From: a virus
Lineage: Duplodnaviria; Caudoviricetes
Virus record (IMG/VR): IMGVR_UViG_3300035070_002282
Location: 1-52,385 of that record
DNA length: 52,385 nt
Reading direction: 5' to 3' (one strand)
How positions within the stretch are numbered: the stretch's first letter is position 1; each line of letters opens with the position of its first letter. This document shows positions 10,286 through 47,280 of the stretch, piece by piece. The notes below the pieces were generated by a model. It saw only the letters and a program-made list of their open reading frames with translations. It was not told where the DNA came from and did no database searches. A program made the translations under genes and the position numbers.

Positions 10286-10639
10286 ATGGACGAACGATTA
10301 GAAAAGGCATTGCACTTTTCAAACTATATGGTCACGTTGAACAATCAAAAGCGTGTGCTTAAAGAAAGATTTCGCGAGCAAACGTTATACTATTATCAAG
10401 GTGGCCAGTTTACTGTAACAAAAGAACTTATGACTTTTGTTGGTATGTTAGTAGAACAAGGCAATGATGAAGATATTGTTTTAGTAGACGATAACGAAAC
10501 TCCGATTATGGTAAAAGATTTGACAGAGTTTCAAGGTGAGATCTTAAATACTTATTTTGCAGCAGCAAATGAATATCATGCAGAGTATCAAAATTTAAGA
10601 AAAAACAGAAGCGTGGAGGCACTAGTTGGTTACGAGTAA
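10286..10639 (+). CDS. hypothetical protein (possibly tail-fibre-assembly/DUF4376-like)
   Basis: AGGAG RBS; 117 aa; 'YYQGGQF...LVDDNETP' resembles tail assembly chaperone folds (weak). Confidence 0.55.
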   Translation: MDERLEKALHFSNYMVTLNNQKRVLKERFREQTLYYYQGGQFTVTKELMTFVGMLVEQGNDEDIVLVDDNETPIMVKDLTEFQGEILNTYFAAANEYHAEYQNLRKNRSVEALVGYE

Positions 10640-11513
10640 AGGTGTGCTTGTGTTTGCCCGCAATAATGCTCAGATAGATTATTGCAAACAGGCGTATGCA
10701 CTTGCAAAACGTGCCCGCAAATTTCTCGATGTTCCTACATCTATTGTAACCGATAGTACTGAATTTTTACTTAATGAATATCCGGATGCAGAACAAGTAT
10801 TTGACAAAATTATTAGTATTGTTTGGAAAGAAGAAGACTTAGCAGAAAATACTACATTATCAAAAACTGAAAATCATGCACTAAGAACATTCTATGATGG
10901 CACGTTAATTGAAAAAAAATTACATTTTAAAAACGAAACTCGTACACTAGCATACGAACTTAGTCCGTATGACGAAACATTGGTATTAGACACCGATGTT
11001 GTTATATGCAACAGCACTCTTAAGAAGTGTTTTGACCGAACACACGACTTTTTAATATATAGAACTTCATACGATCTAGCAAATAACGATCGTTCTACTG
11101 ACTTTGAACGTATATCTGACACTAGCGTAGATTTTTACTGGGCTACGTGTGTATTTTTTAGAAAGACTCCTACTAATAAATTGTTCTTCGATTTGTTGCA
11201 GCACATTCAAGAAAACTGGCCGCATTACAATAATATATTTCAAATTAATACACCTTATTATCGTAATGATTATAGCTTTGCTATTGCTATACATATAATG
11301 AATGGTTATCAACGAGGTGATTTTGCAAAAGATATGCCCGGAGTGCTATATTATACAACAGACAAAAGCATTTTATGGAAACTTAACGATACCGACATGT
11401 TATTGTTATTAGATAAACAAGGATACAGTGGAGAGTACACTCCGATTCGTACTAAAGGTGCAACTGTGCATGTTATGAATAAGTTTAGTTTGAATAGGTG
11501 CATCGATGGATAA
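10626..11513 (+). CDS. GT-A fold glycosyltransferase (GT8/mannosyltransferase-like)
   Basis: 'SPYDETLVLDTD' DxD motif, 'KGVLVFA' N-terminal strand; TTG start 6 nt after GGAGG. Confidence 0.7.
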   Translation: MVTSKGVLVFARNNAQIDYCKQAYALAKRARKFLDVPTSIVTDSTEFLLNEYPDAEQVFDKIISIVWKEEDLAENTTLSKTENHALRTFYDGTLIEKKLHFKNETRTLAYELSPYDETLVLDTDVVICNSTLKKCFDRTHDFLIYRTSYDLANNDRSTDFERISDTSVDFYWATCVFFRKTPTNKLFFDLLQHIQENWPHYNNIFQINTPYYRNDYSFAIAIHIMNGYQRGDFAKDMPGVLYYTTDKSILWKLNDTDMLLLLDKQGYSGEYTPIRTKGATVHVMNKFSLNRCIDG

Positions 11514-12336
11514 AGGATTTTTAATTTTTGCACAAGGCGAAGAATATATAAAGCAAGCATATCTAGCTGCATTAAGTATTACTGCTACAAAAAATTCTTA
11601 TCGCACTAGTATTGTTACATCTGATGTAGTTCCAAACGAATACAAGTGGGCATTTGACAAAATTATTCCTATTCCTTGGTATGAAGAAACCGATAGTAGA
11701 TTTCAAACTGAGCATCGTTGGAAATTGTATCATGCAACTCCCTACAACGAAACAATTGTATTAGATGCAGACGTATTAGTATTGCAAGATTTAGATTACA
11801 TATGGAAGTTTTTTGAAAATTACGATTTATACTTTCCTACTAGGGTGTTTACGTATAGAAAAGATTTAGTAACTAGCGATTTTTATCGAAAAGCATTTAC
11901 AGCAAACAACTTGCCTAATGTATATAATGCTTTACATTTCTTTAAAAAGAGCGAGAAAAGTAAAGAATTTTATACATGGGTAGAACTTATTACTAATAAC
12001 TGGGAATTGTTTTATGGAAAATTTTGTAAAGAGTTTTTTCCTAAACAGCCTAGTATGGACATTACGTGTGCAATTGCTGCAAAAATTATGGACATAGATG
12101 CAGATATTACAAATGTAAAACAAGACATGCCGATGTTAGTACACATGAAACCTAAAATACAAAATTGGGTACAGGATACTGAAACTTGGGGTAATAGAGT
12201 TGGCATATATCTAACTGACGACTTAAAACTCAAAGTAGGTAACCATTTACAAGATACTGTGTTTCATTATGTAGATAACGATTTTGTTACAGATAAAATT
12301 ATAGGAAAATATGAAAATGCAGTTCGTAACATTTAA
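11506..12336 (+). CDS. GT-A fold glycosyltransferase (paralog of previous gene)
   Basis: 'TPYNETIVLDAD' DxD; 'KGFLIFA'; 'FFKK...F' shared with the previous gene. Confidence 0.7.
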   Translation: MDKGFLIFAQGEEYIKQAYLAALSITATKNSYRTSIVTSDVVPNEYKWAFDKIIPIPWYEETDSRFQTEHRWKLYHATPYNETIVLDADVLVLQDLDYIWKFFENYDLYFPTRVFTYRKDLVTSDFYRKAFTANNLPNVYNALHFFKKSEKSKEFYTWVELITNNWELFYGKFCKEFFPKQPSMDITCAIAAKIMDIDADITNVKQDMPMLVHMKPKIQNWVQDTETWGNRVGIYLTDDLKLKVGNHLQDTVFHYVDNDFVTDKIIGKYENAVRNI

Positions 12337-12880
12337 CAAAGATACAGGAGAAATCATTAGTATTGGTAACGAGGCTGATGAAGGATCAAATTATATTGAA
12401 GTAGAACTAGATGCAGTGCGTTCACTTAAGAAAGGTATTGAACCTTTTTCTAATTATCGTGTAGAATATAATCCTAAAACAAAAACAATAGAACTTATAT
12501 CTGTTGCAGAAAATATCTTTGATGTAGCGTCTGTTACAGATTTTATATATGAAATTCCACAGGACGAAATATCAGAACCTGACATATCTATAATTCAAGA
12601 CATACCTAATAAGTGTTGGAAAATTGCTGTCGGCAAAACGTTAAGAAGAAATATTAGAGAAAAGGGCATAAGTTTAAATACTTCAATGATGTTTAGTATA
12701 ACTGCTAACGGTGACCCCAACGTATTATACAAAACTCTGATTGTACACACAGGGCAGACTGTTAACGATAACTACTGTATAATGCCGTTTTCAATGCCGT
12801 TTGAAACTACTAATGAACCTGTAAGCATATACACTGCTAGAAGGTTTGACACTTACCAGTTTAAGAGGTTGTATGAATAA
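12311..12880 (+). CDS. hypothetical protein
   Basis: 189-aa ORF overlapping its neighbours in the operon. Confidence 0.6.
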   Translation: MKMQFVTFNKDTGEIISIGNEADEGSNYIEVELDAVRSLKKGIEPFSNYRVEYNPKTKTIELISVAENIFDVASVTDFIYEIPQDEISEPDISIIQDIPNKCWKIAVGKTLRRNIREKGISLNTSMMFSITANGDPNVLYKTLIVHTGQTVNDNYCIMPFSMPFETTNEPVSIYTARRFDTYQFKRLYE

Positions 12881-13766
12881 GATTAGAGTTGTTGACCAGG
12901 ATATAATTTTTTTAAGTTATGACGAACCCAACGCAGAAAAAAACTATGCAGATTTGTGCAATAAAATTCCTTGGGCAAAGAGAGTTCACGGAGTTGACGG
13001 CAGTGATGCTGCACACAAAGCATGTGCTGATTTATCAGAAACTGAATACTTTGTTACTGTAGATGCAGACAACATTGTTAATCCAGAATTTTTAAACGTT
13101 GAGATTGACTTAGACAGTCTTGGTCTAACTTCGGACTATGTGTTTAGTTGGTGCGGCAAAGTACACGTTAACGGACTAATGTATGGCAATGGCGGATTAA
13201 AATTATGGACACGTAAATTTGTTCATAATATGAAAACACACGAAGCGTCAGCAGACGACGATGACAAAGGTTTAGTAGAGTTCTGCTTTGACGACAAATA
13301 TCATCAGTTTAATGAAAGCTACAGTACATCATATACCAATGCAACGCCGTGGCAATCTTGGAGAGCAGGATTTCGTGAAGGTGTTAAAATGTGCTTAGAC
13401 CAAGGCACGAAAGTAAAAGATCTGCGTAAGACTTGGTGGCAAAATTTTGACCGACAGCGTATTTGGTGCTCAGTAGGTGCTGATGTAGAAAACGGTATGT
13501 GGAGTATGTTTGGCGCTCGCCAAGGGCTATACATGACAATGTGTACAGATTGGAATCATGCAAATGTGCGTGATTTTAAATATCTAAATACATTTTGGGA
13601 TCAACTCGAAGTAACAGAAGAAAATTTATTAGAAACAATCGAAGACTTAGGCGATAAAATTAGATCAAACTTAGGCATTGAAATTGGCGAACTAGATGCA
13701 AATAGCAGTCACTTTTTTAAATCAGTTTATCAAAACACACCGAGGGTGGTAAGAACACGCAAATGA
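12873..13766 (+). CDS. GT2-like glycosyltransferase
   Basis: 'DIIFLSYDE', 'FVTVDADN' DxD, 'YGNGGLKL', 'WRAGFRE.VK'; ATG 12873 preferred over TTG 12846. Confidence 0.65.
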   Translation: MNKIRVVDQDIIFLSYDEPNAEKNYADLCNKIPWAKRVHGVDGSDAAHKACADLSETEYFVTVDADNIVNPEFLNVEIDLDSLGLTSDYVFSWCGKVHVNGLMYGNGGLKLWTRKFVHNMKTHEASADDDDKGLVEFCFDDKYHQFNESYSTSYTNATPWQSWRAGFREGVKMCLDQGTKVKDLRKTWWQNFDRQRIWCSVGADVENGMWSMFGARQGLYMTMCTDWNHANVRDFKYLNTFWDQLEVTEENLLETIEDLGDKIRSNLGIEIGELDANSSHFFKSVYQNTPRVVRTRK

Positions 13767-15142
13767 ATAATGAACTAGACAGAATTAAAAATGTAATACC
13801 GATTACAAATAAAGCAGTCAGTCCAACTTTTTGCATGGCAAAGTGGCATCACACTACAATTTATTTGCAAACAGGTGAAACACATAGTTGTTATCATCCA
13901 GCCCCACATAAGATTCCACTTGAAGAAATTGCAGATAATCCAAGTGCATTACACAACACAAAAGAAAAAAAAGATCAACGCAGGCAAATGATGCAAGGCA
14001 AACAGCCAGCTGGTTGTAACTATTGTTGGAAAATTGAAGCAATGGGTAAAGACTATGTTAGCGATAGGCATATTAAAACAGCGAGTATCTATACTCCTGA
14101 AAGACTAACAGAAATTAAAGATAATGGATTTAATTATGACATCAACCCTGAATATATTGAGATTAGCTTCTCTAACGAATGTAACTTTAAGTGCGGCTAT
14201 TGTCACCCCAAAGCCAGCAGCAGATACTACAACGAAATCAAAACGCACGGTCCCTACACTAGCAGCACCGACCACAGACAAGACATAGACTGGTTTAAAA
14301 TTTACCAAAAAGAAGAAGACAATCCTTATGTAGATGCATGGTGGAAGTGGTGGCCCGAAGTTAGCAAAACATTAAACATCTTGCGTATTACTGGCGGTGA
14401 ACCTCTAATGCACAAAAGTACATGGGAATTATTTGAACGGTTAGATAATGACCCTAAGCCTAAATTACAAATTGAAATAAACAGTAATATGGGAGTTAAG
14501 CCTGCTCTTGTTAAGCGTCTTACTGAAACAGTCAAGCGCCTCAAAGACGAGGGTAAGATTCGTAGTTTTAAACTGTATACAAGTATCGACACTTGGACAG
14601 AACGTGCCGAATACACACGTACTGGACTAGACATTAAGCTGTGGGAACAAAACTTAGATTACTATCTAAGTAACACAGGATGGCCAGTTACGTTTATGAT
14701 TACATTTAATCTCTTTAGTGTTACAAGTTTTAATACATTACTACAAAAGATTTTAGACTGGCGTGTAAAGTATAACAGCGATACTAACGAGTCGCAGTGG
14801 CAACGTGTACGTTTTGACACTCCTCATTTAAAAGAGCCTAGCATCTACGACATGAATATTCTTCCTAAAGAAAATTTTATGCCTTACATGCACAGTCATT
14901 TACAGTTTATTAAAGATAACATAGATGACACAGACCGCACTAAGTTCACTAGTTTAGAATTTGAAAAATTTAAACGAGTTGTTGACTATATGGAAACAAC
15001 GCACTACGAAGAAGCACGTTTAAAATCTGCACATAAAAACTTTTACAATTGGTTTGCACAGCACGATAAAAGACGCAATACTAGCTTAGTAGAATCATTT
15101 CCGGAGTTAAAAGAATTTTATGAAAACTGCAAAAACACTTAA
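13763..15142 (+). CDS. radical SAM protein with N-terminal SPASM/twitch-like Cys domain
   Basis: CNFKCGYC, TGGEP; N-terminal FCMAKW..SCYH..CNYCW. Confidence 0.9.
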   Translation: MNNELDRIKNVIPITNKAVSPTFCMAKWHHTTIYLQTGETHSCYHPAPHKIPLEEIADNPSALHNTKEKKDQRRQMMQGKQPAGCNYCWKIEAMGKDYVSDRHIKTASIYTPERLTEIKDNGFNYDINPEYIEISFSNECNFKCGYCHPKASSRYYNEIKTHGPYTSSTDHRQDIDWFKIYQKEEDNPYVDAWWKWWPEVSKTLNILRITGGEPLMHKSTWELFERLDNDPKPKLQIEINSNMGVKPALVKRLTETVKRLKDEGKIRSFKLYTSIDTWTERAEYTRTGLDIKLWEQNLDYYLSNTGWPVTFMITFNLFSVTSFNTLLQKILDWRVKYNSDTNESQWQRVRFDTPHLKEPSIYDMNILPKENFMPYMHSHLQFIKDNIDDTDRTKFTSLEFEKFKRVVDYMETTHYEEARLKSAHKNFYNWFAQHDKRRNTSLVESFPELKEFYENCKNT

Positions 15143-16427
15143 ATTTTTATACCAATGGATTGGACCGCATGGGCCTATTACAAACACTAGAGTTCCAAAT
15201 CTAGTTGATTTTGCAGTAGCAGGTAAATTAGCAGGTGTAAATACTCCTGTTAATTCCGAGTTCGGCGATTTAAATAGACAGCCTTATTTTTATGAAAAGT
15301 TTAAAGAAGAAGATGTTGTTATTGCATCTACTTGTACTACTCCTACCGGCAAAGCATTATACGAAATAAATTTTTGTAATTACCATTATAGAGACTGGAG
15401 AAAGCTATTTTCAACATCTGACGGCATTATGCAAGAGCAACTGTTTTATATTAGAGGATTTGAAGAGGCTAATATCTATGCATTAGTAACAGTGCTCTAT
15501 GAAGGCTGGGTACACGATAAGTTTTTTGATGAACTGCATAAGTTTTTTGAGCATTTAAAATTTCCGTTAGAAAGAGTAGTGTACGTAAATAATTGTTACA
15601 ATGGTGAAGAAATTTATAAAAATTATTGTGAACGAAGAAGCATCACTCCTAGTATTAATGTAGAATATTTTCCTTCTTTTAGATTTGACAAAACTAACCT
15701 AGAGCATGTTAGTGAAAAATATAAAAACATAGAATATGTTCCTGGTCCAAGAAAGAAAGATTTTTTGTGTTTCCAGCGTAGATGGAGCGATCATAGGGTA
15801 GCATTTTATTTAGACATGCATCGTAAAGGACTGTTAGATAAGTTCTATATGAGTATGGATGCAACCCAACCTGAATCAGGCGCTTCGTATGAAAGTAATG
15901 CAGTGTACTTGGGACAACGCTATCCGCAGTTCAAATATACTACTGAAGAAATCAAAGATGCGCAAGCGTCATTGCCGTTAATTTTAGATACGCACAACTT
16001 TAGTAGTTACCCAATGGAATCAAACGAGTTCGATACTGAGCAATACTTTAAAGATTCACTAATAAATATTATTAGTGAAACATTCTTTTTCAATAAAGAA
16101 ATCCACATCACAGAAAAAACTTTTAAGCCTATTGCATTTATGCAACCGTTTATTATGATGGGAGCAGTTGGTAGTTTGCAACACGTTAAGGATATGGGAT
16201 TTAAAACATTTAGTGAGTTCTGGGATGAGAGCTACGACACTATTAGAAATGATGCAAAACGTTATGACAAGATTGTTAAACTTGTAGAAGAGATCGCAGC
16301 GTGGAGTGAAGAAAAGAAACTAGAGTTTAGTTACAATGTAAAGGATATTGTTGAGTTTAATTCAAAACATTTTGCAACAATGGAACATGTTGAACTAGAA
16401 AACTTTAAAAACAAATATGGAAATTAA
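15120..16427 (+). CDS. putative GT-B glycosyltransferase (GT10/fucosyltransferase-like C-terminal motif)
   Basis: 'SLINIISETFF...ITEKTFKPI...PFI..G....L...GFKTF...DESYD' motif. Confidence 0.5.
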   Translation: MKTAKTLKFLYQWIGPHGPITNTRVPNLVDFAVAGKLAGVNTPVNSEFGDLNRQPYFYEKFKEEDVVIASTCTTPTGKALYEINFCNYHYRDWRKLFSTSDGIMQEQLFYIRGFEEANIYALVTVLYEGWVHDKFFDELHKFFEHLKFPLERVVYVNNCYNGEEIYKNYCERRSITPSINVEYFPSFRFDKTNLEHVSEKYKNIEYVPGPRKKDFLCFQRRWSDHRVAFYLDMHRKGLLDKFYMSMDATQPESGASYESNAVYLGQRYPQFKYTTEEIKDAQASLPLILDTHNFSSYPMESNEFDTEQYFKDSLINIISETFFFNKEIHITEKTFKPIAFMQPFIMMGAVGSLQHVKDMGFKTFSEFWDESYDTIRNDAKRYDKIVKLVEEIAAWSEEKKLEFSYNVKDIVEFNSKHFATMEHVELENFKNKYGN

Positions 16428-16430
16428 TAC

Positions 16431-17399
16431 ATGAAGAAAATATTAGTAACAGGCGCTGGTGGATTTATTGGATACCATTTAGTAAAAAATCTAAAACATC
16501 AAGGGCATTACGTAGTTGGAGCAGATATTAAAGAACCGTTGTATGACCAAACTCACGCTGATGAATTTTATTTGTACGACTTGCGCGATCCTCGACGAGT
16601 AGAAGAATTAATTTCTGGAAAGGAATTTGACGAAATTTACCAACTTGCAGCCGATATGGGCGGCACAGGGTATATTGCAATTAGCGACCACGATAGTGCA
16701 ATTATGCACAATTCGGCAATGATTAATTTAAATATGATTCATGCTGCTGCACAACATCTTGTTCCAAAGATTCTTTATACAAGCAGTGCATGTGTATACC
16801 CCGAGCGTAATCAGACCGATCCAGACAATCCGTTATGTTCTGAATCAAGTGCATATCCTGCAGAGCCCGATACAGAGTACGGTTGGGAAAAATTGTTTAG
16901 TGAACGCTTATATCTAACATACGCTAAAAATTATGGCATTGATGCTAAGGTAGTAAGATTGCATAATGTATTTGGCCCGCAAGGAAGTTGGAACGACGGT
17001 AAAGAAAAAGCACCAGCTGCACTATGCCGCAAAGTTGCTGAAAGTAACGGCTCAGTAGACATTTGGGGACCAGGCAATCAAACACGTAGTTTTTTATATA
17101 TCGATGAATGTGTTGAAGGGTTAAAACGAATTATGCATAGTAACATTGATTTTCCTATTAATTTAGGTAGTGAACGTATGATTAGTATTAATGACCTTGC
17201 AAGATTAATTGCACAAATTGCTGGAAAGAATACAATTGAAATTAATAATGTACAAGGACCTGTCGGTGTAATGGGACGCTCTAGTCATAACGAGCTACTC
17301 GAAAAAAGTCTAGGGTGGCGTCCTAGCGAGGATTTAGAATACGGATTGTCAAAAACATATCCTTGGATTAAGGAACAGGTAGATGCTAGTATACAGTAA
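16431..17399 (+). CDS. NAD-dependent nucleotide-sugar epimerase, GDP-mannose 3,5-epimerase-like
   Basis: VTGAGGFIG, LAADMGG.GYI, SSACVYP, YGWEK, GKEKAPAALCRK, QTRSF motifs. Confidence 0.9.
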   Translation: MKKILVTGAGGFIGYHLVKNLKHQGHYVVGADIKEPLYDQTHADEFYLYDLRDPRRVEELISGKEFDEIYQLAADMGGTGYIAISDHDSAIMHNSAMINLNMIHAAAQHLVPKILYTSSACVYPERNQTDPDNPLCSESSAYPAEPDTEYGWEKLFSERLYLTYAKNYGIDAKVVRLHNVFGPQGSWNDGKEKAPAALCRKVAESNGSVDIWGPGNQTRSFLYIDECVEGLKRIMHSNIDFPINLGSERMISINDLARLIAQIAGKNTIEINNVQGPVGVMGRSSHNELLEKSLGWRPSEDLEYGLSKTYPWIKEQVDASIQ

Positions 17400-32188: not shown

Positions 32189-32193
32189 GCTAT

Positions 32194-32207: not shown

Positions 32208-32227
32208 TTACTAGATAAAGGCGTATT

Positions 32228-39119: not shown

Positions 39120-39947
39120 ATGATTGAACAAATACACTTTTTTGGATGTAGCGTTACCGCGGGCAACGAACTATGGGAAGAAGCACACGTTACGGGGTAC
39201 AATGACCTGTCGTTTAAAGAAGCACGTAAAGTTGCTAAAGACGCAGATCAGAATCTTATTGACCCGTATAATTATAATAATTCGTTTCCTGCGCTAACTG
39301 CTAAACTACTAAATGTAGATAATTTTAAAAATCACGCAATTCCTGGAATTTCTAATAAAGAAATTGCTGCAAGAGCAATTGCCGCTTTTCCCGAAGACAA
39401 ATACACTAACACAGTTGCGCTAATTCAGTTTACTACGCACAATAGAATGGTGTTACGATACAAAGAAACTGACACTAGCTCAACAGTTGGTAGCTTTGTT
39501 ATTCATCCAACTGCCGGACACGATAGTAGACTTTCACGCAAGCAGGGTAATTTGTTAACAGAAATGTTCTTTGAGTTTTTTAACGAGTCGTTATTATCTC
39601 AAGATGATCATATGTTTGTGTACTACGCAGTAGAAGTATTGAGAAATAAAGGAATTGATGCGCACATTTTATGGTGCGACATTCAAGTCGGCGACTGGAT
39701 TCACTGGGATCACGATGCAGGTGCAGCTGACAATAATAAAGAAATTAGTATTAAGTCAGATATAGAACCTGACTATATGCAACCTGTTAATACATTTATT
39801 GCTAAAGAGTACCATAAATACAATCCAATAGGGAAAACTTTTAACGACGTAGTAGGCAACAATCAAAGATTGCCAAGATTTCACTATTCGCAAGCATCAC
39901 ATGTTTTGATTGCCAACGCCCTAGCAGAGAGGTTTAAAGATGTTTAA
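39120..39947 (+). CDS. SGNH/GDSL-fold protein
   Basis: 'FFGCSVTAG', 'N.AIPG.SN', C-terminal 'HY...H..IA'. Confidence 0.65.
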   Translation: MIEQIHFFGCSVTAGNELWEEAHVTGYNDLSFKEARKVAKDADQNLIDPYNYNNSFPALTAKLLNVDNFKNHAIPGISNKEIAARAIAAFPEDKYTNTVALIQFTTHNRMVLRYKETDTSSTVGSFVIHPTAGHDSRLSRKQGNLLTEMFFEFFNESLLSQDDHMFVYYAVEVLRNKGIDAHILWCDIQVGDWIHWDHDAGAADNNKEISIKSDIEPDYMQPVNTFIAKEYHKYNPIGKTFNDVVGNNQRLPRFHYSQASHVLIANALAERFKDV

Positions 39948-40044: not shown

Positions 40045-42006
40045 ATGAATTCTTCTAAAAAGAAAGTAGTGATTTATGTACCTGATTCAACTAGCGGCAT
40101 CTATCTTCCGCTGCTTTGGGCCAGTGCTAAAAGCTACTATGAAATTAAAGGACAGCGGCCTGACGAGTACGAATGGATTCATCCGCGCATTAATTATGAA
40201 TTCAATTTTGAAAAACTTAAAGAACAATTACTTAAAATAAAACCAGATGTATTTGGTATTAGTATGTACATCTGGAACGATGTACAATGCCTTGAAGCAG
40301 CTAAATGGGTTAAAGAAACTTTTCCTAACTGTTTAGTAATAAGCGGCGGCCCACAACAATATTTTAAACATGAAAGAGATTGGTTTGAAAAGTACACATT
40401 CCTTGACGCAAGTCTTGATGGCGGACAATATGGCGAAGTTACTATTGCAGATATCCTAGATAATCTAACTGACGATAACAAAGTTGATTGGGATTTAGTT
40501 ACTGAAGTAGTTTATCCTGGAAAAACTATTCTGCCAAAAACAGATCGAGGAATTCTTAAAAGTAAAAAGCGTATTAACAAACGAGCCTTTATGTGGGATT
40601 ACAGTCCTTATGATATGCAACGAGATGTTATATTAGAGTGTTCTAATGAAATTAGATCGCTAACTAGCGAGAATGAAACGTATGACGTTAATGCATATGT
40701 TAATGGAAAATTAGAAACAACTCGAGGTTGTCCTTATGCGTGTGCGTTCTGTGATTGGGGCGGAGGCATTGCATCAAAGGTTATTCAAAAATCTGTAGAT
40801 AAAGTTAAGTTAGATATTAATGTTTTAGAAGAAGCAGGTTGTTCTTATATTTTCCTTTGTGATGCAAACTTTGGAATAATGCGTGACCGAGATATTGAAA
40901 TTATGAACTATCTTGCTGAACGAAAAAAGAAAAATCCATTTTTGTTTCATGTATACTTTGGCGGCTTTGCTAAATCAGACAAGCACACTGAAGTCATAAA
41001 AGAAATTTTAGACATTGATGCAAGGCATAATCTAACATGGGATTTAAGCTACAAAGCTAGTATACAAAGTATTCATAAAGATATTTTAGATAACATTAAA
41101 CGTACTGACATTTCTTTTGAAAAGCACATTTATTTGGCCAAACATCTTAAAGATAATTATAATTTTTCTTCATATGCTGAATGTATTAGTGGTCTTCCGG
41201 GAATAACTCCTGACAGATGGTACGAAGAAATGAATGTTTTTGCATCGCACAATATGGACATTTGTTTGTACAACTGGCATATGCTTCCTGAAACACCGAG
41301 TTACGATCAAGCATTTAGAGATAGAATGGGCATTAAAACTGTTGAAAAGTTTAATAACATGCAAACTAATAACTCTACATTACGTAAGAGTGAAGTAGTA
41401 GTAGAAACTTTTAGTTATACTAAAGAAGATTATAAAGAAATGTGGATGGCATATGCTATTCAACGATCGTTTTGGGCAACAGGCCTATTAAGAAAAACAA
41501 TCAAACAGATCTTAAAACAGTCAGACATTGGCTACGGCGACTTTGTTAAAATGTTTTATAGAGATTTTTTAAGAGGCAACCCCGGACCTGTATTTAAAAA
41601 ATATGTAGATCAGGTTGATAAACAGTATGCTGATTATTATGATCCAAACAGCGATGTTAGTAATTTGTCAATTATGTTTCCTACAGCTAATGTGCCAATG
41701 CAAAGTTCTCTTATGCTATTTTATTTTTACAATCTCGACAACTGTAGAGATACATTAGTGTCATGGTTAATACATAACTTTCCGTACCTTAATGAAAAGG
41801 CAATTAACAAAGAGCTTGACAAATTTATTACTGTAAACAATAGATACACTACTAAGTTCAGTTTAACTAGAGCAATTAGTTTTAACAACAGTGTTATTGA
41901 CCAATTTAAAAAAGACACAGAAGGTAACTTAGTAGACTTTATAGTTACTCAAATGGAAACTTATACTAACACCAATTTCTTGACAGCAAGGGCAATAGGT
42001 GTATAA
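40045..42006 (+). CDS. cobalamin-binding radical SAM protein (class B-like)
   Basis: 'PDVFGISMYIWN...VISGGP..GE' B12-binding domain; ETTRGCPYACAFCDW; DANFG. Confidence 0.88.
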   Translation: MNSSKKKVVIYVPDSTSGIYLPLLWASAKSYYEIKGQRPDEYEWIHPRINYEFNFEKLKEQLLKIKPDVFGISMYIWNDVQCLEAAKWVKETFPNCLVISGGPQQYFKHERDWFEKYTFLDASLDGGQYGEVTIADILDNLTDDNKVDWDLVTEVVYPGKTILPKTDRGILKSKKRINKRAFMWDYSPYDMQRDVILECSNEIRSLTSENETYDVNAYVNGKLETTRGCPYACAFCDWGGGIASKVIQKSVDKVKLDINVLEEAGCSYIFLCDANFGIMRDRDIEIMNYLAERKKKNPFLFHVYFGGFAKSDKHTEVIKEILDIDARHNLTWDLSYKASIQSIHKDILDNIKRTDISFEKHIYLAKHLKDNYNFSSYAECISGLPGITPDRWYEEMNVFASHNMDICLYNWHMLPETPSYDQAFRDRMGIKTVEKFNNMQTNNSTLRKSEVVVETFSYTKEDYKEMWMAYAIQRSFWATGLLRKTIKQILKQSDIGYGDFVKMFYRDFLRGNPGPVFKKYVDQVDKQYADYYDPNSDVSNLSIMFPTANVPMQSSLMLFYFYNLDNCRDTLVSWLIHNFPYLNEKAINKELDKFITVNNRYTTKFSLTRAISFNNSVIDQFKKDTEGNLVDFIVTQMETYTNTNFLTARAIGV

Positions 42007-43085
42007 TGAAGGTAACAAAGTTTCCTGTAGGTAATTATGGAGTTATTATTGACGATTTAGACCTCGATAATATTACTAATGAAGAATGGGAAGAAATTGG
42101 TAAACTCCATTTAAAGAACTTAGTTACAATTATACGAGGCAGTAAGTGCAACGTAGACCAATTTTCTAAACTTATACACCAATGGGGTCCTGAGTTTTGG
42201 AGTTTAAAATATTCATTACTTAAAAAGTATAATCTAAACTGGAGTACTTTTCAAGCAGCAGTACTAGCTGACTTACCTATTATTGAACCAATAGATAAAG
42301 AAATTTTAGACATTCTTTACAAGGCAAGTGTAACTGCTGAGAATGGTAAAAGCATTAATTTTTTTAGTTCGTCAAAAGACGAAAAAGGTGATTACGGATT
42401 ATACGGCGGCCAAGAATTAGACTGGCATATGCACAGCAGCGGCAACTATGTTTTTGAACATGCTGTTAGCTTACTAGCTGCTAAGAACGTTGTAGGCACT
42501 GCTACGGGCTTTGTAAGCACTGCTGATTACTATGAAAGTGTCTCAGAAAGTTTTAGATCAGAACTTAATGACATGATTGTATTACACAAATACGATAGTG
42601 CAGATGTAGACCCTCCTTTTAGACCAAGTGAAGAAGCAGTACTTAAATTTAAAATGTGCCCAGTGGACTATAATGAAGTGCCTATGGTAATACAAAGTCC
42701 TGGAGGAATTAAAGGATTGCACTTTTCTCCTCCTACTATGTACAAAATTAAAGATGCAACTGAAAAAGAAAGTCAGAAAATATTTAATACTATTTCAAAA
42801 AAATTGTTTAGTAAGAAATATATTTATGATCATTGGTATACGCAAGACGGCGATTTTTTAACATTTGACAATAGCATCACACTACACAGACGAGTAGGTC
42901 AAACAGACGACAGAAAAATATATAGAATAGAACACACCTACGATAATCTGTTAGATAAATTTTACGAACCGTTTTTACAAGAAAAGTATGCTAAACAACA
43001 TAGAAAAATGATTAGACAAATTATGAATCTAGATAAAAGTTCTGGATTTATTAAGCCTCCATTTAAGATTAAGGATTTATTATGA
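42006..43085 (+). CDS. TauD/TfdA-like dioxygenase
   Basis: 'YGVII.D.DL', 'DWH', 'H.Y..DGD...FDN..TLHRR'. Confidence 0.75.
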   Translation: MKVTKFPVGNYGVIIDDLDLDNITNEEWEEIGKLHLKNLVTIIRGSKCNVDQFSKLIHQWGPEFWSLKYSLLKKYNLNWSTFQAAVLADLPIIEPIDKEILDILYKASVTAENGKSINFFSSSKDEKGDYGLYGGQELDWHMHSSGNYVFEHAVSLLAAKNVVGTATGFVSTADYYESVSESFRSELNDMIVLHKYDSADVDPPFRPSEEAVLKFKMCPVDYNEVPMVIQSPGGIKGLHFSPPTMYKIKDATEKESQKIFNTISKKLFSKKYIYDHWYTQDGDFLTFDNSITLHRRVGQTDDRKIYRIEHTYDNLLDKFYEPFLQEKYAKQHRKMIRQIMNLDKSSGFIKPPFKIKDLL

Positions 43086-43765
43086 CACCTAAAGAAAAAC
43101 AAATTAAAGAGTTTTACGACACTATTACATTTCCGGGATTATATAAATCTATAGATGTTGTTGAGTATGGTGACTATTTAATCTACGAACGTTACTTGAG
43201 ATTCTATGAAGATAATGATGTAACTACAGTTCTTGACATTGGGTGCGGCAGCGGATTTGTCACTAATGTTATTGCGTATAATAATCCGCATCTAAAAATT
43301 ACTGCTATTGATTTCAGCGACACTATTGAGCACGGAAAGAAAATTGCAAAAGAGTTAGGCATTAAGAATATTAAATGGGTCAAAGCAAACTTTTTAACAA
43401 AGAAATTTAATAACACATATGACGTAGTGTTTGCTAACGGCTCTTTACATCATATGCCCGAATATAAAACTGCTGTAGAAAAAGCAAAGTCGTTAACGCA
43501 TAATTTCTTATTAGTTGGGCTTTATAACAAATACGGCAAATGGATACAACGAAACATAGTCCCCAAATTTAGTACTGTTTGTTTTGAATTAGATCAAATG
43601 TCTATTCCGTTTGAACTTAGTTTTACACATAATCAATCTAAGAAAGCATTTAAAGAGTTTAAACTTGTAAAAGTTACTCCTAGTATATTTGGTGTGGGCG
43701 TAGACTTTGTAAGTCTGTTTAGAGGTAAATGGGGCGGATTTACGTTTTATACGTTTAAAAGATAA
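43082..43765 (+). CDS. class I SAM-dependent methyltransferase
   Basis: VLDIGCGSG, AIDFS, YDVVFANGSLHH. Confidence 0.9.
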   Translation: MTPKEKQIKEFYDTITFPGLYKSIDVVEYGDYLIYERYLRFYEDNDVTTVLDIGCGSGFVTNVIAYNNPHLKITAIDFSDTIEHGKKIAKELGIKNIKWVKANFLTKKFNNTYDVVFANGSLHHMPEYKTAVEKAKSLTHNFLLVGLYNKYGKWIQRNIVPKFSTVCFELDQMSIPFELSFTHNQSKKAFKEFKLVKVTPSIFGVGVDFVSLFRGKWGGFTFYTFKR

Positions 43766-44328
43766 TCTGAAAACATAGCAACAGCTAATCCAAAACTAAC
43801 GTGTTTAGGTTCTGATTTTTCAGCAAGTGGTACTGCTAAAGTCCAACGCCCTTTGGGACCAGGACAGTATGTACTGTGTAACATTCCTACTTGTACTAAA
43901 CTAGGAATATTTGTAGGTGTCCTGTGTATTTCATTGCACTGATGAGCTTCTGCTCTTAGATAATTTACGCCAAATGTAGTTGTAATTGGTTCGGGTGCGA
44001 ATCCTTTTTTAGGTTGCCACCAGATAATTTCGCCATCACCGTATGAGATATTTAATCTTGCAATATCGCTTATATGGTCTGTATCTGCATGTAACCAAAT
44101 ACCTCCGCCGGGCGGAGTATAAAATGCCTCCCAAGATGGAATACGTAGTCCGGAAATACCTTCCATAAAGTCTACAAACTCTTTGTTAATCATTGTCTTA
44201 GGATCAAGTTCTACATGATTTAATTGATCGGGATTTTCCGGAAATAATTTAAACAGATCTATTTCCGGCATCACTGGAAGATTTAAGTACTGGTGTACAT
44301 ATGGCTTTCTTTTAAATAGATTAAACAT
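43747..44328 (-). CDS. 2OG-Fe(II) oxygenase-like protein
   Basis: 'EAFYTPP...HAD...PSLV..G..HST....RWTL'. Confidence 0.55.
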   Translation of the reverse strand: MFNLFKRKPYVHQYLNLPVMPEIDLFKLFPENPDQLNHVELDPKTMINKEFVDFMEGISGLRIPSWEAFYTPPGGGIWLHADTDHISDIARLNISYGDGEIIWWQPKKGFAPEPITTTFGVNYLRAEAHQCNEIHRTPTNIPSLVQVGMLHSTYCPGPKGRWTLAVPLAEKSEPKHVSFGLAVAMFSDYLLNV

Positions 44329-45100
44329 TAAAAAATATCTTCTTTATTTCCTCTGCTATTAACTTGTAACCTTCAATAGTAGGGTGCATGTCATTAGTCA
44401 TATAAGTAGCAGGGCCGTCCATTTTAGGATAATGATTTGCTACGGTTTCGTAGTCATCTGCGCATACGTTGTCGCGCCTTGCAAATAATCGAGCAAAACA
44501 ATCATAGTCAGTGTGACTATGTACACATCGACTCCAGTCTATCTTATTTGCAACATCGGGGCACATTTTCTTTAAATATTCTTCGCCCCGTATTTCAAAA
44601 CCGTTTCCAAATACAAAATCAAATCCATTAGCTTTGGCAAAGTTTTGTGCTTCTAAAATACAACAAGCAGTTTCTACAGCAGCAGCACTTGCACTATATA
44701 ACTTTGAATACATAATGTGAATATCTTTATGATCTAAAAAAGGCCAAAGTGTTTCAAACTTATAATGATCTTCTTTCCAGCCTTCTTTAAAAAGATCAAA
44801 CCGTTCAAAGCCTGTAAGAATTAAAACAACAGTACCGCCATTATATTCATCAAAGTCATTTAAGTATAAACTGCGCACTGCGCCTCTATTGCCAATTGCA
44901 CGTTGACCTAAATTAATTGGAGTATAATCTAATAAGTCTGCTAGTCGTTTAACCCAACTGTTTTCTTGTTCCATAGGAATTAGGTGCATAGACTCGGATA
45001 GTTTCTTCCACATGCGTCCGTTATTAGCATCCCAAACTTCTTTAGTGTAGCCACCTTCTCCCTGCGTCCAACTGTCGCCTATGCCTATTATTGTTTTCAT
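44321..45100 (-). CDS. SGNH/GDSL hydrolase-fold protein
   Basis: GIGDSWTQG, NLG...GN, DMHP...GY..IA. Confidence 0.8.
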   Translation of the reverse strand: MKTIIGIGDSWTQGEGGYTKEVWDANNGRMWKKLSESMHLIPMEQENSWVKRLADLLDYTPINLGQRAIGNRGAVRSLYLNDFDEYNGGTVVLILTGFERFDLFKEGWKEDHYKFETLWPFLDHKDIHIMYSKLYSASAAAVETACCILEAQNFAKANGFDFVFGNGFEIRGEEYLKKMCPDVANKIDWSRCVHSHTDYDCFARLFARRDNVCADDYETVANHYPKMDGPATYMTNDMHPTIEGYKLIAEEIKKIFFNV

Positions 45101-45702
45101 ACTTGATCTTTACTCACGTATTCGCTAAGTTTATCTAATGCTTCGTCCCATAATACTCTGCGCTCGCTACCAATATGCACTAGCGCAAGACTTAATGTCC
45201 ATCGACCTTCTTCACTAGGGTTCCACGTACTATGAAATGTGCCTATGTTTACAAGGCTTGGTTTATTAATTTCTACTTCAAGTAGTTTCTTACAATGGCG
45301 TTCTTTAGCAGTAAGATACGGTAATCCAAACTCTGTTTGAAAAGTGTCAATGTATTTTTCATGTTTTGGCTCCCACCAAATTAACTTACTTTTAGGAGCA
45401 CCGTATGTCCAATTAATTTTAACAACATCAGATAGTTCAGGAGTGTCAGTGTGAATAGGAATCTTCCCCCCATAAGGCGGAGTATAAAATGCTTCAACCC
45501 AAATTGGATTAAATCCTACACCTTCAATCCATTTAATAAGTTCTAGATTAATTTCTGTATCCTCAACCGTAATGTGTCGATTGAACATAGGATCATAATC
45601 TGTTCTAGCAAATAGATCAATTTTAGGATCTACAGGTATATCGAGAAATCGATGAAAACGATTTTCTTTCTTTTTCTTTTTAAACAAATCAAACATTGAC
45701 AT
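45097..45702 (-). CDS. 2OG-Fe(II) oxygenase-like protein (paralog of 43747-44328)
   Basis: 'EAFYTPP...HTD...PSLV..G..HST.....RWTL'. Confidence 0.55.
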   Translation of the reverse strand: MSMFDLFKKKKKENRFHRFLDIPVDPKIDLFARTDYDPMFNRHITVEDTEINLELIKWIEGVGFNPIWVEAFYTPPYGGKIPIHTDTPELSDVVKINWTYGAPKSKLIWWEPKHEKYIDTFQTEFGLPYLTAKERHCKKLLEVEINKPSLVNIGTFHSTWNPSEEGRWTLSLALVHIGSERRVLWDEALDKLSEYVSKDQV

Positions 45703-46513
45703 AATTATCTATGGTGTACTTACTAACTAAGCAATGATCCTTATATTTTTCAATACTGCGATTTAGTACAGTTTCGTATTGTTCTAGATCTACAATTGCA
45801 ATAACAACTGCTAAGATTTTAGAATAATTATCGTCCTTAACGCTACCATGCACACAACGTAAGTTGTTCCACATGTAAGTATTAGTTTCTTCAAGCTGTG
45901 GTAAGAAAAACGTATCCTCTACGTTATACGGTTTAGTAGGGTTATCCATTACGTACAATGTAGACTCCGGGTTTTCATCATAAAGCGGAATTCTAAATGA
46001 ATTTGGACCATCCCACATTTCTGCACTATCTCTATGCTCAGAGAATGTTTGTACACTTGACCATAAGTTTAATGTTAGTATATCCTTTACGGGAAGCGAC
46101 TCGTGAAATTGCTGCCATAACTTTGGAAATTCTTTTTTAAACTCGTCAGTGTGCATATTTAAATCCCAGTCGTCGCCTACTTTTTGTATTAAATCTACTG
46201 AATAGAATGGACTAAATTCTGGCCCTGTGACTTGTGCTACATAATCACCGTTTTGCTTAACTGGTTTAATAGCGTGTTTAAAATACCAATCCTTAAAGTG
46301 TTCAGGATCATCAAGTTCAAACTTTGGTACGTCAATAGGCACTGCTAAGTATTTTCCAAATTTCTTCTCTATATCGTAAACTTTAGGATCGTTGCCTAGG
46401 AAGTTTTCAATTTGAAATTTTCTTTGAGTACTAATATGCTCTACTAATTTTGAACTGTCTGCTGTTTCTCTTGCTCGTGCAGCTAGTGCATTTTCAGTTG
46501 GTTCATACCGCAT
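45689..46513 (-). CDS. 2OG-Fe(II) oxygenase-like protein
   Basis: 'EHRD...FRI...WNN....HGS......K'. Confidence 0.5.
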   Translation of the reverse strand: MRYEPTENALAARARETADSSKLVEHISTQRKFQIENFLGNDPKVYDIEKKFGKYLAVPIDVPKFELDDPEHFKDWYFKHAIKPVKQNGDYVAQVTGPEFSPFYSVDLIQKVGDDWDLNMHTDEFKKEFPKLWQQFHESLPVKDILTLNLWSSVQTFSEHRDSAEMWDGPNSFRIPLYDENPESTLYVMDNPTKPYNVEDTFFLPQLEETNTYMWNNLRCVHGSVKDDNYSKILAVVIAIVDLEQYETVLNRSIEKYKDHCLVSKYTIDNYVNV

Positions 46514-47280
46514 TAGATTATTTCTCCGTACTTTGCTCTTATTTCTTTATAGTTATCTCTAGTGAACTTTTCACTAGACAGGTCAATAGTTTCGTCATAC
46601 GGATCACAAGGGGTCATTCCAATATGTGCCATATCTAAATCAATCATAAACACTACTCGCCATTCGTTAGAATTATTATACGCACTATGTGTATGTTGAT
46701 TATTAAATCCCCAAATATTATCCCAAGTAACTTCTTCGCCACTAGCTTCTAAAAATACATCTCCTTCAGGAATAATAAGAGGAATATGAATCCTAATATA
46801 TTTTCCGTCTCTGTTCTCAGGACCACTATGTCTATTTAATATAGTATGAGGAGCAAGTATAGTGTAATTAGCAATAGGACAATACTCGTTGTATTCTTTT
46901 ACTAGCTTATGTGCAGTAGGGTACTTACGAGCAATTCTATCTCCGTCACTTCTAGCAAACTGAAAATCAATCAGTTCATCATGTCTGCTGTATTTAAATT
47001 GTATGCCCTTCCAGCCCGACATGTCTTTTTCATATTCACCTGTCTCTAGGTTTTTTATTTCAACGCCTTGTACAGTTTCGTCTAATGCTACACCAAACAT
47101 ACGTAAATCTAAATTATCTGTAGAATACTTTTTACATGCTTGTTCTAAAGAATCAAATCCTTCTAGGAATTCGTCACGGAGAGCATCTTGAAAGCCCATA
47201 AGATAATCGGCGATAGGAATTTCATTTCCTCGCCAAATTTTCTTCATTTGGTAAATTTCTTCTAAGGATTTCTTATACAT
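46513..47280 (-). CDS. Asp/Asn beta-hydroxylase family protein
   Basis: 'Y.IL.P...L.RHSG....IRIHIPLIIP....F.....HSAYN.S.EWRVV...D'. Confidence 0.85.
   Translation of the reverse strand: MYKKSLEEIYQMKKIWRGNEIPIADYLMGFQDALRDEFLEGFDSLEQACKKYSTDNLDLRMFGVALDETVQGVEIKNLETGEYEKDMSGWKGIQFKYSRHDELIDFQFARSDGDRIARKYPTAHKLVKEYNEYCPIANYTILAPHTILNRHSGPENRDGKYIRIHIPLIIPEGDVFLEASGEEVTWDNIWGFNNQHTHSAYNNSNEWRVVFMIDLDMAHIGMTPCDPYDETIDLSSEKFTRDNYKEIRAKYGEII

Follow-up and report, generated by a model that had tools for sequence, protein, structure and literature searches.

The viral contig IMGVR_UViG_3300035070_002282 (IMG/VR; Duplodnaviria, Caudoviricetes) was analyzed over its full length of 52,385 nt, referred to below as the window. 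Between its tail-fiber genes and a fiber-like gene it carries an island of 42 contiguous open reading frames (ORFs; g7-g48, positions 10286-47280) that is probably a kit for assembling and tailoring a glycan. More tentatively, and with somewhat less than even confidence in the statement as a whole, we propose that this is the soluble glycan kit of a marine jumbo phage and that it acts on a structural protein encoded next to it. The island has a conserved core that includes glycosyltransferases (GTs) and radical S-adenosylmethionine (SAM) enzymes, its position beside the fiber genes is conserved, and its main expanded radical SAM family, NF033640, is linked to bacterial surface-glycan loci.

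On the contig as a whole (G+C 0.33-0.40), 55 ORFs were called and named g1-g55 (Table 1), each from the first available ATG, GTG or TTG. Within the island, the ORF lengths add up to 1.01 times the interval. Overlaps occur at 33 of the 36 same-strand junctions, and the other three have gaps of 3, 18 and 97 nt; together with one of 57 nt these are all of the intergenic gaps. The overlaps may be overestimated because the first possible start codon was taken, but the initial annotation of about 40 contiguous, mostly coupled genes describes the layout well. The listed start of g22 is a GTG at 23895; its homologs all align from Met24, and translation probably begins at 23964, leaving an overlap of 8 nt with g21. 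None of the island proteins contains a 19-residue stretch that would pass for a membrane segment (the top 19-mer, at 1.67, lies within a radical SAM core). Pfam matches were considered at E <= 0.01. At that threshold no flippase, polymerase, initiating transferase or transporter family was matched in the window, and no component of a Gtr-type O-antigen module (membrane GtrA, GtrB, GtrC) was matched among the 42 island ORFs, which also lack a convincing hydrophobic 19-mer for one. The absence of transporter and thymidylate synthase-like genes stated in the initial annotation holds for the window.

Homology of the backbone genes assigns the contig to a marine jumbo-phage lineage that is abundant and has Atu_ph07, Rak2 and PA5oct as relatives. 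IMG/VR holds at least 599 relatives of g2, the best 80 at 77-100% identity. The nearest isolates for g2 and g54 are Phosso and Atu_ph07 (52-56% for g2), Rak2-like phages and PA5oct, and the g2 homologs in Rak2-like phages carry structural or baseplate annotation. Lineage contigs reach 262 kb; since a contig of that length is estimated to be 73% complete, the genome would be about 350 kb, and the window about 15% of it. A megablast search of both window halves against 50,697 phage records gave zero matches, and the moraphages, as described in the available part of PMC12619734, are a different lineage.

In all seven long relatives the backbone order is the same: g2, fibers, island, g49-g54. The length of the island in these relatives, measured from g7 to g49, ranges from 18 to 44 kb. 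Nine genes (g7, g8, g9, g11, g19, g20, g22, g23 and g24) are found in all seven, and another set (g16, g17, g27-g29, g35, g37-g40 and g43-g48) has no homolog in the island of any of them. The island consists of a conserved core and a variable shell. A wider sample took in 51 IMG/VR loci reaching at least 9 kb downstream of g2. The start of the core is present in 42 of them, six are undecided and three have no island, the fibers there running straight into g49/g50. The initial annotation had suggested asking in related phages whether the island always lies beside the fiber genes and whether it is hypervariable. It does lie there in the seven long relatives and its shell does vary, but the core is conserved and the island is missing from three of the 51 loci.

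The core also occurs in a cultured phage. Searches with g8 and g11 in 50,697 isolate records matched a single one, Ralstonia phage RsoM2USA (344 kb), whose ORF354-347 include homologs of g7, g8, g9, g11, g12, g19 and g23 (32-44% identity) in the same order, with an ORF of the size of g10 in the place of g10; this defines an eight-gene core. The cassette directly follows a gene with the fiber N-terminal domain and lies near baseplate genes. All of ORF354-347 are labeled ‘hypothetical’ in the record, and they are not mentioned in the available text of the paper on this phage (PMC8504454). A few genes upstream of the cassette, at 224282-226089, an epimerase-like ORF of the short-chain dehydrogenase/reductase (SDR) type, ORF358 (24% identity to g14), lies between virion-protein genes, within the structural module.

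The same form of the island recurs in the sea. Eighteen runs of seawater or marine metagenomes, from 11 studies dated 2021-2025, contain near-identical DNA of positions 10286-20285 (81-93% of sampled words), and contigs from two studies bridge the junction of fibers and island (3898-14367 with 23 differences; 3898-13073 with 42 differences). Because the genotype recurs across runs and studies, this form of the island is stable and widespread and is no assembly chimera. The DNA runs also contain many short ‘joints’ of <95% likeness that resemble other strains or paralogs.

Seven GT-like proteins had been annotated, and all seven (g8, g9, g11, g19, g13, g15 and g18) are supported by profile comparison, fold models or paralogy despite the lack of a Pfam GT match. 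The 28-sequence profile of the paralogs g8 and g9 (A1) matches glycogenin, a member of GT8, at E 2.6e-6, over only its N-terminal ~100 residues (half); in the DxD motif D124 is invariant and D122 nearly so in the 28 sequences. The AlphaFold2 (AF2) model of g11 (pLDDT 86) gave 20 Foldseek matches at E <= 0.001, all of them glycosyltransferases and nearly all of the GT-A fold. The best are the glycocin S-glycosyltransferases ThuS and SunS (best E 3.7e-5), A64R of chlorovirus PBCV-1 and R699 of mimivirus are among the matches, and the TM-scores are 0.22-0.35 overall; D73 and D75 are invariant in 14 sequences, and g11 has a bacterial homolog at 39%. For g13 (AF2 model pLDDT 85), all of the listed Foldseek matches are of the GT-B fold, with a best E of 6.8e-6 and TM-scores of 0.27-0.44. 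A relation of g13 to GT10 is an Atlas lead at 0.79 only, with no Pfam match; an invariant ‘H..EKT.KP’ stretch presumably resembles the fucosyltransferase motif. Homologs of g13 are numerous (343 matches), and the 120 listed are all unnamed or ‘hypothetical’ and have no Pfam domain. Searches of the PDB with profiles or sequences of g11 (A2) and g13 (A3) gave no meaningful match. Since the TM-scores are low, the models support the GT fold class and no particular enzyme.

Eight of the 42 island ORFs (g12, g20, g21, g22, g24, g26, g30 and g41) are above the Pfam Radical_SAM cut-off, in agreement with the eight radical SAM genes annotated initially. Four of them (g12, g21, g24 and g30) belong to NF033640, the NCBIfam family N_Twi_rSAM (‘twitch domain-containing radical SAM protein’), with scores well over its curated cut-off of 170 bits. 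In 12 sequences of the family the CxxxCxxC cysteines (C140, C144, C147) and four N-terminal cysteines (C8, C26, C84, C87) are invariant. Five relatives have 1, 7, 8, 7 and 8 copies, every one of them within the island interval, and the 262-kb contig of one relative has no copy outside its island. In a Pfam census of the 145 island ORFs of four relatives, 48 match Radical_SAM and 16 SPASM, and AspH, UDP-glucose dehydrogenase and epimerase families are also present. As far as our literature searches show, no function has been described for N-terminal-twitch radical SAM enzymes.

The bacterial surroundings of NF033640 point to glycan metabolism. Among 201 sampled Bdellovibrionota genomes, 45 score above cut-off for the family, with copies frequently in tandem on megabase contigs. 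In four of these regions (140 kb with 118 ORFs) there are 29 Radical_SAM ORFs and nine ORFs with SPASM, and the commonest other families are Polysacc_synt_2, Epimerase, GT1, GT2, PMT_2, parts of ABC-2 transporters, Bac_transf and UDP-GlcNAc 2-epimerase. These regions hold homologs of g11 (39%), g19 (39-44%), g20 (50-51%), g22 (31-37%), g24 (45%) and g38 (27%), and no homolog of a phage structural gene was found in them. Among the 25 commonest of the 109 families in the bacterial regions, none is a hallmark of peptides made by the ribosome and modified after translation (RiPPs). On a Methylomagnum plasmid, a single gene annotated with the NF033640 family name lies among genes for GT39, GT2, GT4, an SDR, a polyprenyl synthetase, AsnB, an ABC transporter, a methyltransferase and a PhyH-type dioxygenase. 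Because the bacterial loci hold homologs of core genes, the core of the island shares a functional module with bacterial surface-glycan loci.

One locus found with g24 was rejected as bacterial context, as it is a phage-type island on a contig binned into a metagenome-assembled genome (MAG). This MAG is titled Pseudobdellovibrionaceae, and three of its contigs (C50, C105 and C49) carry the phage-type island, C50 with 10 copies of NF033640. Together with the g20 and g24 homologs of 45-51% in chromosomes of the same phylum, these contigs could reflect mis-binning or could hint at a host or gene donor.

The sugar-nucleotide enzyme of the island is g14, annotated initially as a GDP-sugar epimerase. 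It matches GDP-mannose 3,5-epimerase (GME) over its full length (residues 3-318; 309.8 bits; E 2.3e-91 to the PDB entry in Table 1), the next family, UDP-glucuronate decarboxylase, following at E 1e-27. The gene is placed between two GT-B paralogs, g13 and g15, and the enzyme is a likely source of GDP-L-galactose.

The other enzymes named initially fared unevenly. The halogenase, g37, is clear. Of about eleven 2-oxoglutarate (2OG)-Fe(II) oxygenases, seven have Pfam matches (g16, g31, g33, g34, g36, g48 and g42) and four are weaker, with hhalign links for g44, g46 and g25 and a motif only for g47. The alignment of g44 and g46 (A6) links to the AspH paralogs at 67% hhalign probability (E 5.2e-5), with HxD..H aligned, unlike g44 as a single sequence, which gave no link of at least 30%. 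Among three proposed methyltransferases g43 is solid, g17 falls below its cut-off and g23 is a lead only. The adenylation enzyme does have an AMP-binding match, but as a fragment of 222 aa, and the two SGNH proteins, the kinase and the phosphatase (g40, g45, g29 and g35) correspond to motifs or weak matches. Against the window templates tried, hhalign gave no link of at least 30% probability for g7, g10, g23, g27, g32, g35, g38, g40, g45 or g47. Searches of the PDB with the g23 profile (A7), g27, g32 and g38 gave no meaningful match, and PHROGs gave, for 20 unannotated island ORFs, only a weak match of g9 to phrog_1903.

Table 1. Genes of the window, with assignments and the evidence for each
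Gene	Assignment	Position	Strand	Evidence
g1	Large baseplate- or fiber-like structural protein, left flank	76..3123	+	Pfam TIG 1.7e-8, Phage_T7_tail 9.7e-6
g2	Highly conserved structural protein, lineage marker	3146..3760	+	phrog_11259 7.9e-70
g3, g4, g5	Three paralogous tail-fiber genes, common N-terminal domain	3764..9196	+	Collar 7.5e-15 (g3); PHROG tail/tail-fiber families; paralogy
g6	Protein between fibers and island, poorly conserved (27-51% identity)	9223..10209	+	Synteny; no Pfam or PHROG match
g7	Small protein, first core gene	10286..10639	+	In 7/7 long relatives and RsoM2USA; alignment A9
g8, g9	Paralogous GT8-like GT-A glycosyltransferases, core	10626..12336	+	Profile A1 vs glycogenin
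g10	Core protein	12311..12880	+	BLAST homolog in 4/7 long relatives; same-size ORF at same place in RsoM2USA
g11	Predicted GT-A fold glycosyltransferase with C-terminal helical domain, core	12846..13766	+	AF2 model and Foldseek
g12	N-terminal-twitch radical SAM, core	13763..15142	+	NF033640 321.8 bits
g13	Predicted GT-B fold glycosyltransferase, variable shell	15120..16427	+	AF2 model and Foldseek
g14	GDP-mannose 3,5-epimerase homolog	16431..17399	+	PDB 2c59 E 2.3e-91; Pfam Epimerase 2.5e-43
g15	GT-B-like, paralog of g13 C-terminal half	17383..18519	+	blastp 1.4e-12; hhalign 97%
g16	Prolyl-hydroxylase-type 2OG-Fe(II) oxygenase	18509..19204	+	2OG-FeII_Oxy_3 2e-15
g17	Methyltransferase-like	19197..19811	+	Methyltransf_24 3e-5, 25.3 bits vs cut-off 26.3
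g18	GT-B-like, paralog of g13 C-terminal half	19808..21040	+	blastp 1.3e-9; hhalign 94%
g19	GT-A paralog of g11, core	21059..21745	+	blastp 2.3e-24; hhalign 99%; bacterial homologs 39-44%
g20	Radical SAM, core	21714..22697	+	Radical_SAM 2.5e-11; bacterial homologs 50-51%
g21	N-terminal-twitch radical SAM	22685..23971	+	NF033640 224.7 bits
g22	Radical SAM with C-terminal SPASM, core	23895..24950	+	Radical_SAM 4.3e-10; SPASM 1.1e-7
g23	Class I methyltransferase-like, core, lead only	24940..25545	+	Atlas 0.95 to viral cluster, 21% of members with Methyltransf_31
g24	N-terminal-twitch radical SAM, core	25545..26846	+	NF033640 404.9 bits; SPASM at residues 8-87; bacterial homologs 45%
g25	Cupin or AspH-like (weak)	26846..27502	+	hhalign 66%, E 5.7e-5 vs A5; HRD motif
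g26	Radical SAM, g20 paralog	27499..28401	+	Radical_SAM 9.1e-11
g27, g28	Paralogs with internal repeats	28369..30743	-	blastp, two offset segments; no Pfam, PHROG or PDB match
g29	Small kinase-like (weak)	30712..31167	-	RIO1 0.0016, APH 0.003, both below cut-off
g30	N-terminal-twitch radical SAM	31154..32251	-	NF033640 223.7 bits
g31	Asp/Asn beta-hydroxylase family oxygenase	32228..32944	+	Asp_Arg_Hydrox 1.1e-14
g32	490-aa protein	32941..34413	+	No Pfam, PHROG or PDB match; homologs in relatives' islands
g33, g34	AspH-family oxygenases	34398..35604	+	Asp_Arg_Hydrox 1.2e-12, 1.2e-14
g35	Cys-phosphatase-like, motif only	35601..36020	+	HCx5R: HCVHGASR at residue 99
g36	AspH-family oxygenase	36007..36678	+	Asp_Arg_Hydrox 3.4e-9
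g37	Flavin-dependent halogenase	36654..37874	+	Trp_halogenase 1.6e-79
g38		37826..38404	-	No family match; 27% homolog in bacterial radical SAM/GT cluster
g39	Short AMP-binding (adenylation) fragment, 222 aa	38394..39062	-	AMP-binding 8e-18, profile positions 168-330 of 384
g40	SGNH-like, motif only	39120..39947	+	GCSVTAG at residue 9
g41	B12-dependent radical SAM methyltransferase-like	40045..42006	+	Radical_SAM 4.3e-8; KedN5 family 2.1e-40, far below its cut-off
g42	TauD/TfdA-family 2OG oxygenase	42006..43085	+	TauD 9.1e-21
g43	Class I SAM methyltransferase	43082..43765	+	Methyltransf_31 5.3e-16
g44	Cupin-like, g46 paralog	43747..44328	-	Alignment A6 vs AspH paralogs
g45	SGNH-like, motif only	44321..45100	-	GDSWTQG at residue 8
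g46	Cupin-like, g44 paralog	45097..45702	-	Alignment A6
g47	Possible HxD..H oxygenase	45689..46513	-	Motif only; no hhalign support
g48	AspH-family oxygenase, last island gene	46513..47280	-	Asp_Arg_Hydrox 6.6e-14
g49	Fiber-like, conserved right boundary	47326..48693	-	Mtd_N 5.4e-5, below cut-off; synteny
g50-g55	Conserved backbone genes incl. DUF2201 metallopeptidase/VWA protein and MoxR-like ATPase	48746..52370	-	

Some further details of the shell and flanks may be noted here. The adenylation fragment g39 is the central third of the domain; its start lies close to the conserved Ser/Thr-Gly-rich loop, and the gene is a minimal form or else a remnant. The minus-strand block of g27, g28, the kinase-like g29 and a radical SAM gene is absent from all seven relatives. 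In relative G008 (L101:15756-18365), the g23-like domain is the C-terminal part of an 869-aa protein, and in three other relatives the g23-like proteins have N-terminal extensions of 50-150 residues with repeated ‘LRKA..E.NL.SIFR’ units. The islands of four relatives (G004, G007, G008 and G011) contain what looks like a complete tripartite tricarboxylate transporter set (TctA at 8.9e-146, TctB and TctC), along with a DctP-type binding protein, two nitroreductases, an asparagine synthase and two UDP-glucose dehydrogenases; membrane transporter genes are unusual within a phage island.

The island had been described as flanked by tail-fiber genes on both sides. On the left this is borne out by Collar, T7-tail N-terminal, TIG and PHROG matches, while the case for g49 on the right consists of a below-cut-off Mtd_N match and synteny, its N-terminal half being conserved in relatives at the distal end of their islands. 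Farther right, g54 (DUF2201 metallopeptidase/VWA) adjoins g55 (MoxR-like AAA ATPase) at 50252-52370. This pair is 74-81% identical in relatives and 35-43% across Rak2-like, PA5oct-like and Phosso jumbo phages, where the homologs are variously annotated as HNH endonuclease, hydrolase or homing endonuclease.

As we picture the pathway, the core GTs would build a short glycan from host nucleotide sugars. The core comprises four GT-A enzymes, of which two are GT8-like, together with an N-terminal-twitch radical SAM enzyme, two other types of radical SAM enzyme, a methyltransferase-like protein and two small proteins, and its radical SAM and methyltransferase-like members would edit the glycan. The shell would then vary the chemistry of the product from phage to phage: g14 may supply GDP-L-galactose to the flanking GT-B paralogs, and further changes may be made by radical SAM paralogs, the ~11 oxygenases, the halogenase, methyltransferases, the B12-type radical SAM methylase and acyl-handling proteins. 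A fiber or baseplate protein would be glycosylated in the cytoplasm, before or during assembly. The gene families, folds, conserved position and split into core and shell, and the link of the radical SAM family to bacterial glycan loci, are what the analysis shows; that all of the genes act on one product, and on which acceptor, we infer.

Because the kit is soluble and has no initiating transferase, exporter or GT-C enzyme, it must have its own acceptor in the cytoplasm or else feed a host pathway. We lean, with confidence just short of even, toward a virion structural protein (fiber or baseplate) as the acceptor. The core has stayed beside a fiber gene both in a Ralstonia phage from soil and in ocean phages, although their hosts probably have no outer glycan in common, and a self-contained soluble kit suits a protein acceptor. 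A virion target is favored by the linkage to fibers in all seven relatives, by the same linkage in RsoM2USA and by the soluble, transporter-free gene set.

Several results weigh against this assignment. In the window, Pfam matched no GT family, not even Glyco_transf_8 for g8 and g9, and the fold matches of g11 and g13 have low TM-scores (0.22-0.44). The bacterial context of NF033640 comes from one phylum, Bdellovibrionota, and one plasmid only; moreover, the bacterial homologs sit with exporters and an initiating transferase, that is, in cell-surface pathways, which fits remodeling of host glycans equally well. The loci without an island show that it is dispensable. Its history also differs from that of the fibers: relative G011 has the closest fibers (65%), yet distant island genes (g20 50%, g23 34%), whereas G002, G004 and G009 have distant fibers (45-47%) and close island genes (g11 71-72%, g20 82-84%, g23 66-82%). 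Nor are the relatives nearest in g2 and the fibers those nearest in g11, g20 and g23. The island and the fibers or backbone thus have different histories, apparently with independent recombination, which argues against tight pairing of enzymes and fibers. Short contigs of one metatranscriptome library cover g8, g9, g12, g13, g14, g15 and g16 with 0-1 differences, but they are only compatible with expression because DNA may have been carried over; in the RNA-library runs the stretch is partly uncovered (shares of 0.13 and 0.07 in X19 and X20), which has no bearing on expression level or absence. A good sigma70-like site (11/12) lies at 10231-10259, 27 nt upstream of g7, with none so good upstream of the fiber genes, a hint against the island being just one section of a late structural operon. 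The initial proposal of a pathway that glycosylates and tailors virion proteins or the host surface is therefore upheld for glycan tailoring, by the GT folds, the GME homolog and the bacterial loci, while a virion target is a tentative preference.

The promoter scan as a whole is not above chance (82 sigma70-like sites vs 75.6 +/- 8.5; sites of at least 11/12, 6 vs 3.5 in plain shuffles), so the placement of the site before g7, and of a 12/12 site at 51656-51629, 34 nt upstream of g54, is a hint only. Two further 12/12 matches are too near the starts of g19 and g42 to serve them. The T4-type late-promoter word TATAAATA has five matches vs 8.6 expected, again not above chance.

An alternative that fits almost as well as a virion target, but that we consider less likely, is remodeling of the host surface. 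Here the enzymes would plug into the cytoplasmic assembly of host O-antigen, capsule or lipopolysaccharide (LPS) core, with the purpose of blocking superinfection or keeping progeny off infected cells and debris; adjacency to the fibers would reflect receptor masking that co-evolves with receptor-binding proteins, or a region tolerant of insertions. The decoupled histories and the sigma70-like site suit this alternative, as do the homologs of g11, g19, g20, g22 and g24 (31-51%) in bacterial loci with exporters and an initiating transferase, and a variable shell would mirror the diversity of host O-antigens. The likeness of g8 and g9 to GT8 points the same way, since the available sections of PMC7029224 describe GT8 as mainly an LPS family, and its authors favor this explanation for the analogous island of pelagimyophages. 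However, the window has no match to a membrane protein, flippase, polymerase or transporter, and the order and one-to-one orthology of the eight-gene core are kept between the marine lineage and a soil Ralstonia phage, for which a shared outer glycan is unlikely. A newly exported glycan would also replace the existing surface only slowly.

It is improbable that the island has no single pathway and is simply a recombination-tolerant site where unrelated auxiliary cassettes gather beside fiber genes. Most shell genes are indeed specific to this phage in comparison with the seven relatives, strand switches split the island into blocks, the relatives' islands hold the TctABC/DctP, nitroreductase and asparagine synthase genes described above, and the halogenase g37 belongs to a family common, at ~30% identity, to T4-like cyanomyophages and pelagiphages. 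However, the core is kept in all seven relatives and in RsoM2USA, the same core families co-occur in bacterial loci, the GME homolog is coupled with GT-B paralogs, and one superfamily makes up 48 of the 145 island ORFs in four relatives, unlike a random collection.

A RiPP-like or other small-molecule product, directed against competitors or host defenses, is less probable still. SPASM and twitch radical SAM enzymes are a mainstay of RiPP maturation, according to the available part of PMC11002830, and the island proteins do show weak NCBIfam matches to many peptide maturases; the top fold matches of g11 are the S-glycosyltransferases ThuS and SunS, and the island also has a halogenase, the AMP-binding fragment and hydroxylases of the AspH type. 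However, the peptide-maturase matches reach 15-54 bits vs cut-offs of 265-650, no RRE/PqqD, leader-peptidase or exporter family was matched by Pfam among the 42 ORFs, and there is no precursor-sized gene, as the interval is filled with ORFs and its widest gaps measure 97, 57 and 18 nt (ORFs nested in genes fall outside this check). RiPP clusters resemble the island in combining several SPASM or twitch radical SAM enzymes with methyltransferases and hydroxylases; they differ in that the island has no match to a precursor, recognition element, protease or exporter, its twitch domain is N-terminal, and the cellular context of NF033640 is glycan loci.

Hypermodification of phage DNA, in which hydroxymethylated bases would be elaborated to evade restriction, is very improbable: phage thymidine and cytosine hypermodification does use glycosyltransferases, kinases and sometimes radical SAM enzymes, and other parts of such a pathway could lie in the rest of the genome, but the thymidylate synthase family (PF00303) was found neither in the window nor in the contigs of five relatives (113-262 kb, all incomplete; the same search was positive in 10 of 14 control genomes), the island lies within the structural module, and the bacterial homologs are in polysaccharide loci.

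Among systems of known function, virus-encoded glycosylation of virions occurs on the capsid of chlorovirus PBCV-1, the fibrils of mimivirus and the capsid and tail of mycobacteriophages. The likeness to the island is that soluble viral GTs act in the cytoplasm on structural proteins, with genes near structural genes. We know of no use of radical SAM enzymes in these systems; furthermore, glycosylation of their particles has been demonstrated, whereas for the present island it is a proposal. The bacterial NF033640 loci share with the island the tandem arrays, homologs of g11 and g19 (GT-A), g20 and g22, and nearby SDR sugar enzymes, methyltransferases and a 2OG-type dioxygenase. They own an initiating phosphoglycosyl transferase, an ABC-2 exporter and GT-C/PMT-type enzymes, none of which was matched in the phage island, and the island in turn adds the GT8-like genes, g7, g10 and g23.

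The closest described counterpart, the host recognition cluster (HRC), is found in T4-like marine phages, the pelagimyophages and cyanomyophages (Zaragoza-Solas et al. 2020, PMC7029224), and by analogy the island would work like the HRC islands. As described in the available sections of that paper, the HRC is a large, non-syntenic island in the structural region by the tail-fiber genes (mean 44.6 kb in pelagimyophages), rich in glycosyltransferases, of which GT8 is the most represented, with radical SAM cassettes that are gained and lost; the same phages also have hydroxylases of the AspH type, and the function of the HRC is unproven. Marine phage genomes have long been noted for surprisingly many radical SAM genes, 12 in the case of one T4-like genome (PMC5332604), and in their available parts neither PMC5332604 nor PMC7029224 gives the radical SAM genes of phages a chemical role. 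In both the HRC and the present system, a variable, fiber-adjacent island in the structural module combines GTs with radical SAM cassettes. The near-uniqueness suggested by the initial annotation is therefore not tenable, as islands beside fiber genes with GT8 and radical SAM cassettes had already been described in marine T4-like myophages. The backbones are different, T4-like there and here that of a ~350-kb jumbo phage with Atu_ph07, Phosso, Rak2 and PA5oct as kin, and for this reason the island is not a strict member of the HRC (the HRC boundary genes VrlC and gp14 were not searched for). A further difference is that the present island has a defined conserved core in common with a soil phage and is dominated by radical SAM genes.

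The initial statement that no characterized pathway is known for the whole was right, and our literature searches found no description of the cassette. Judged by these searches, novelty lies in three points: that an eight-gene core can be defined and occurs in a cultured phage, how far NF033640 has expanded, and the link of NF033640 and the core GT-A enzymes to bacterial glycan loci. Beyond the preferred reading of a soluble kit for a virion glycan, a bolder version may be considered, which we regard as speculative and on balance unlikely. In this version NF033640 would be an unrecognized class of radical glycan-editing enzymes, captured by this phage lineage from bacterial surface-glycan loci, multiplied to 4-10 copies per genome and shuffled with GTs, oxygenases and a halogenase, so that the fibers would bear a glycan coat of combinatorial variability, and the eight-gene core, common to soil and ocean phages, would be a minimal fiber-glycosylation machine. 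If this were true, the organelle of host recognition would be diversified via carbohydrate chemistry and not via protein sequence.

The main expanded radical SAM family of the island is now tied to glycan loci and to defined partner glycosyltransferases, and the eight-gene core is small enough to reconstitute, so that the abundance of radical SAM genes in ocean phages becomes experimentally approachable. If the acceptor is a fiber, its product would be the first virion glycan tailored by radical SAM enzymes and a new way to vary or shield the receptor-binding organelle; if the acceptor is the host surface, a lytic phage would have, in this island, an exceptionally elaborate means of masking receptors. 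With either acceptor, NF033640 is a candidate source of new carbohydrate radical chemistry.

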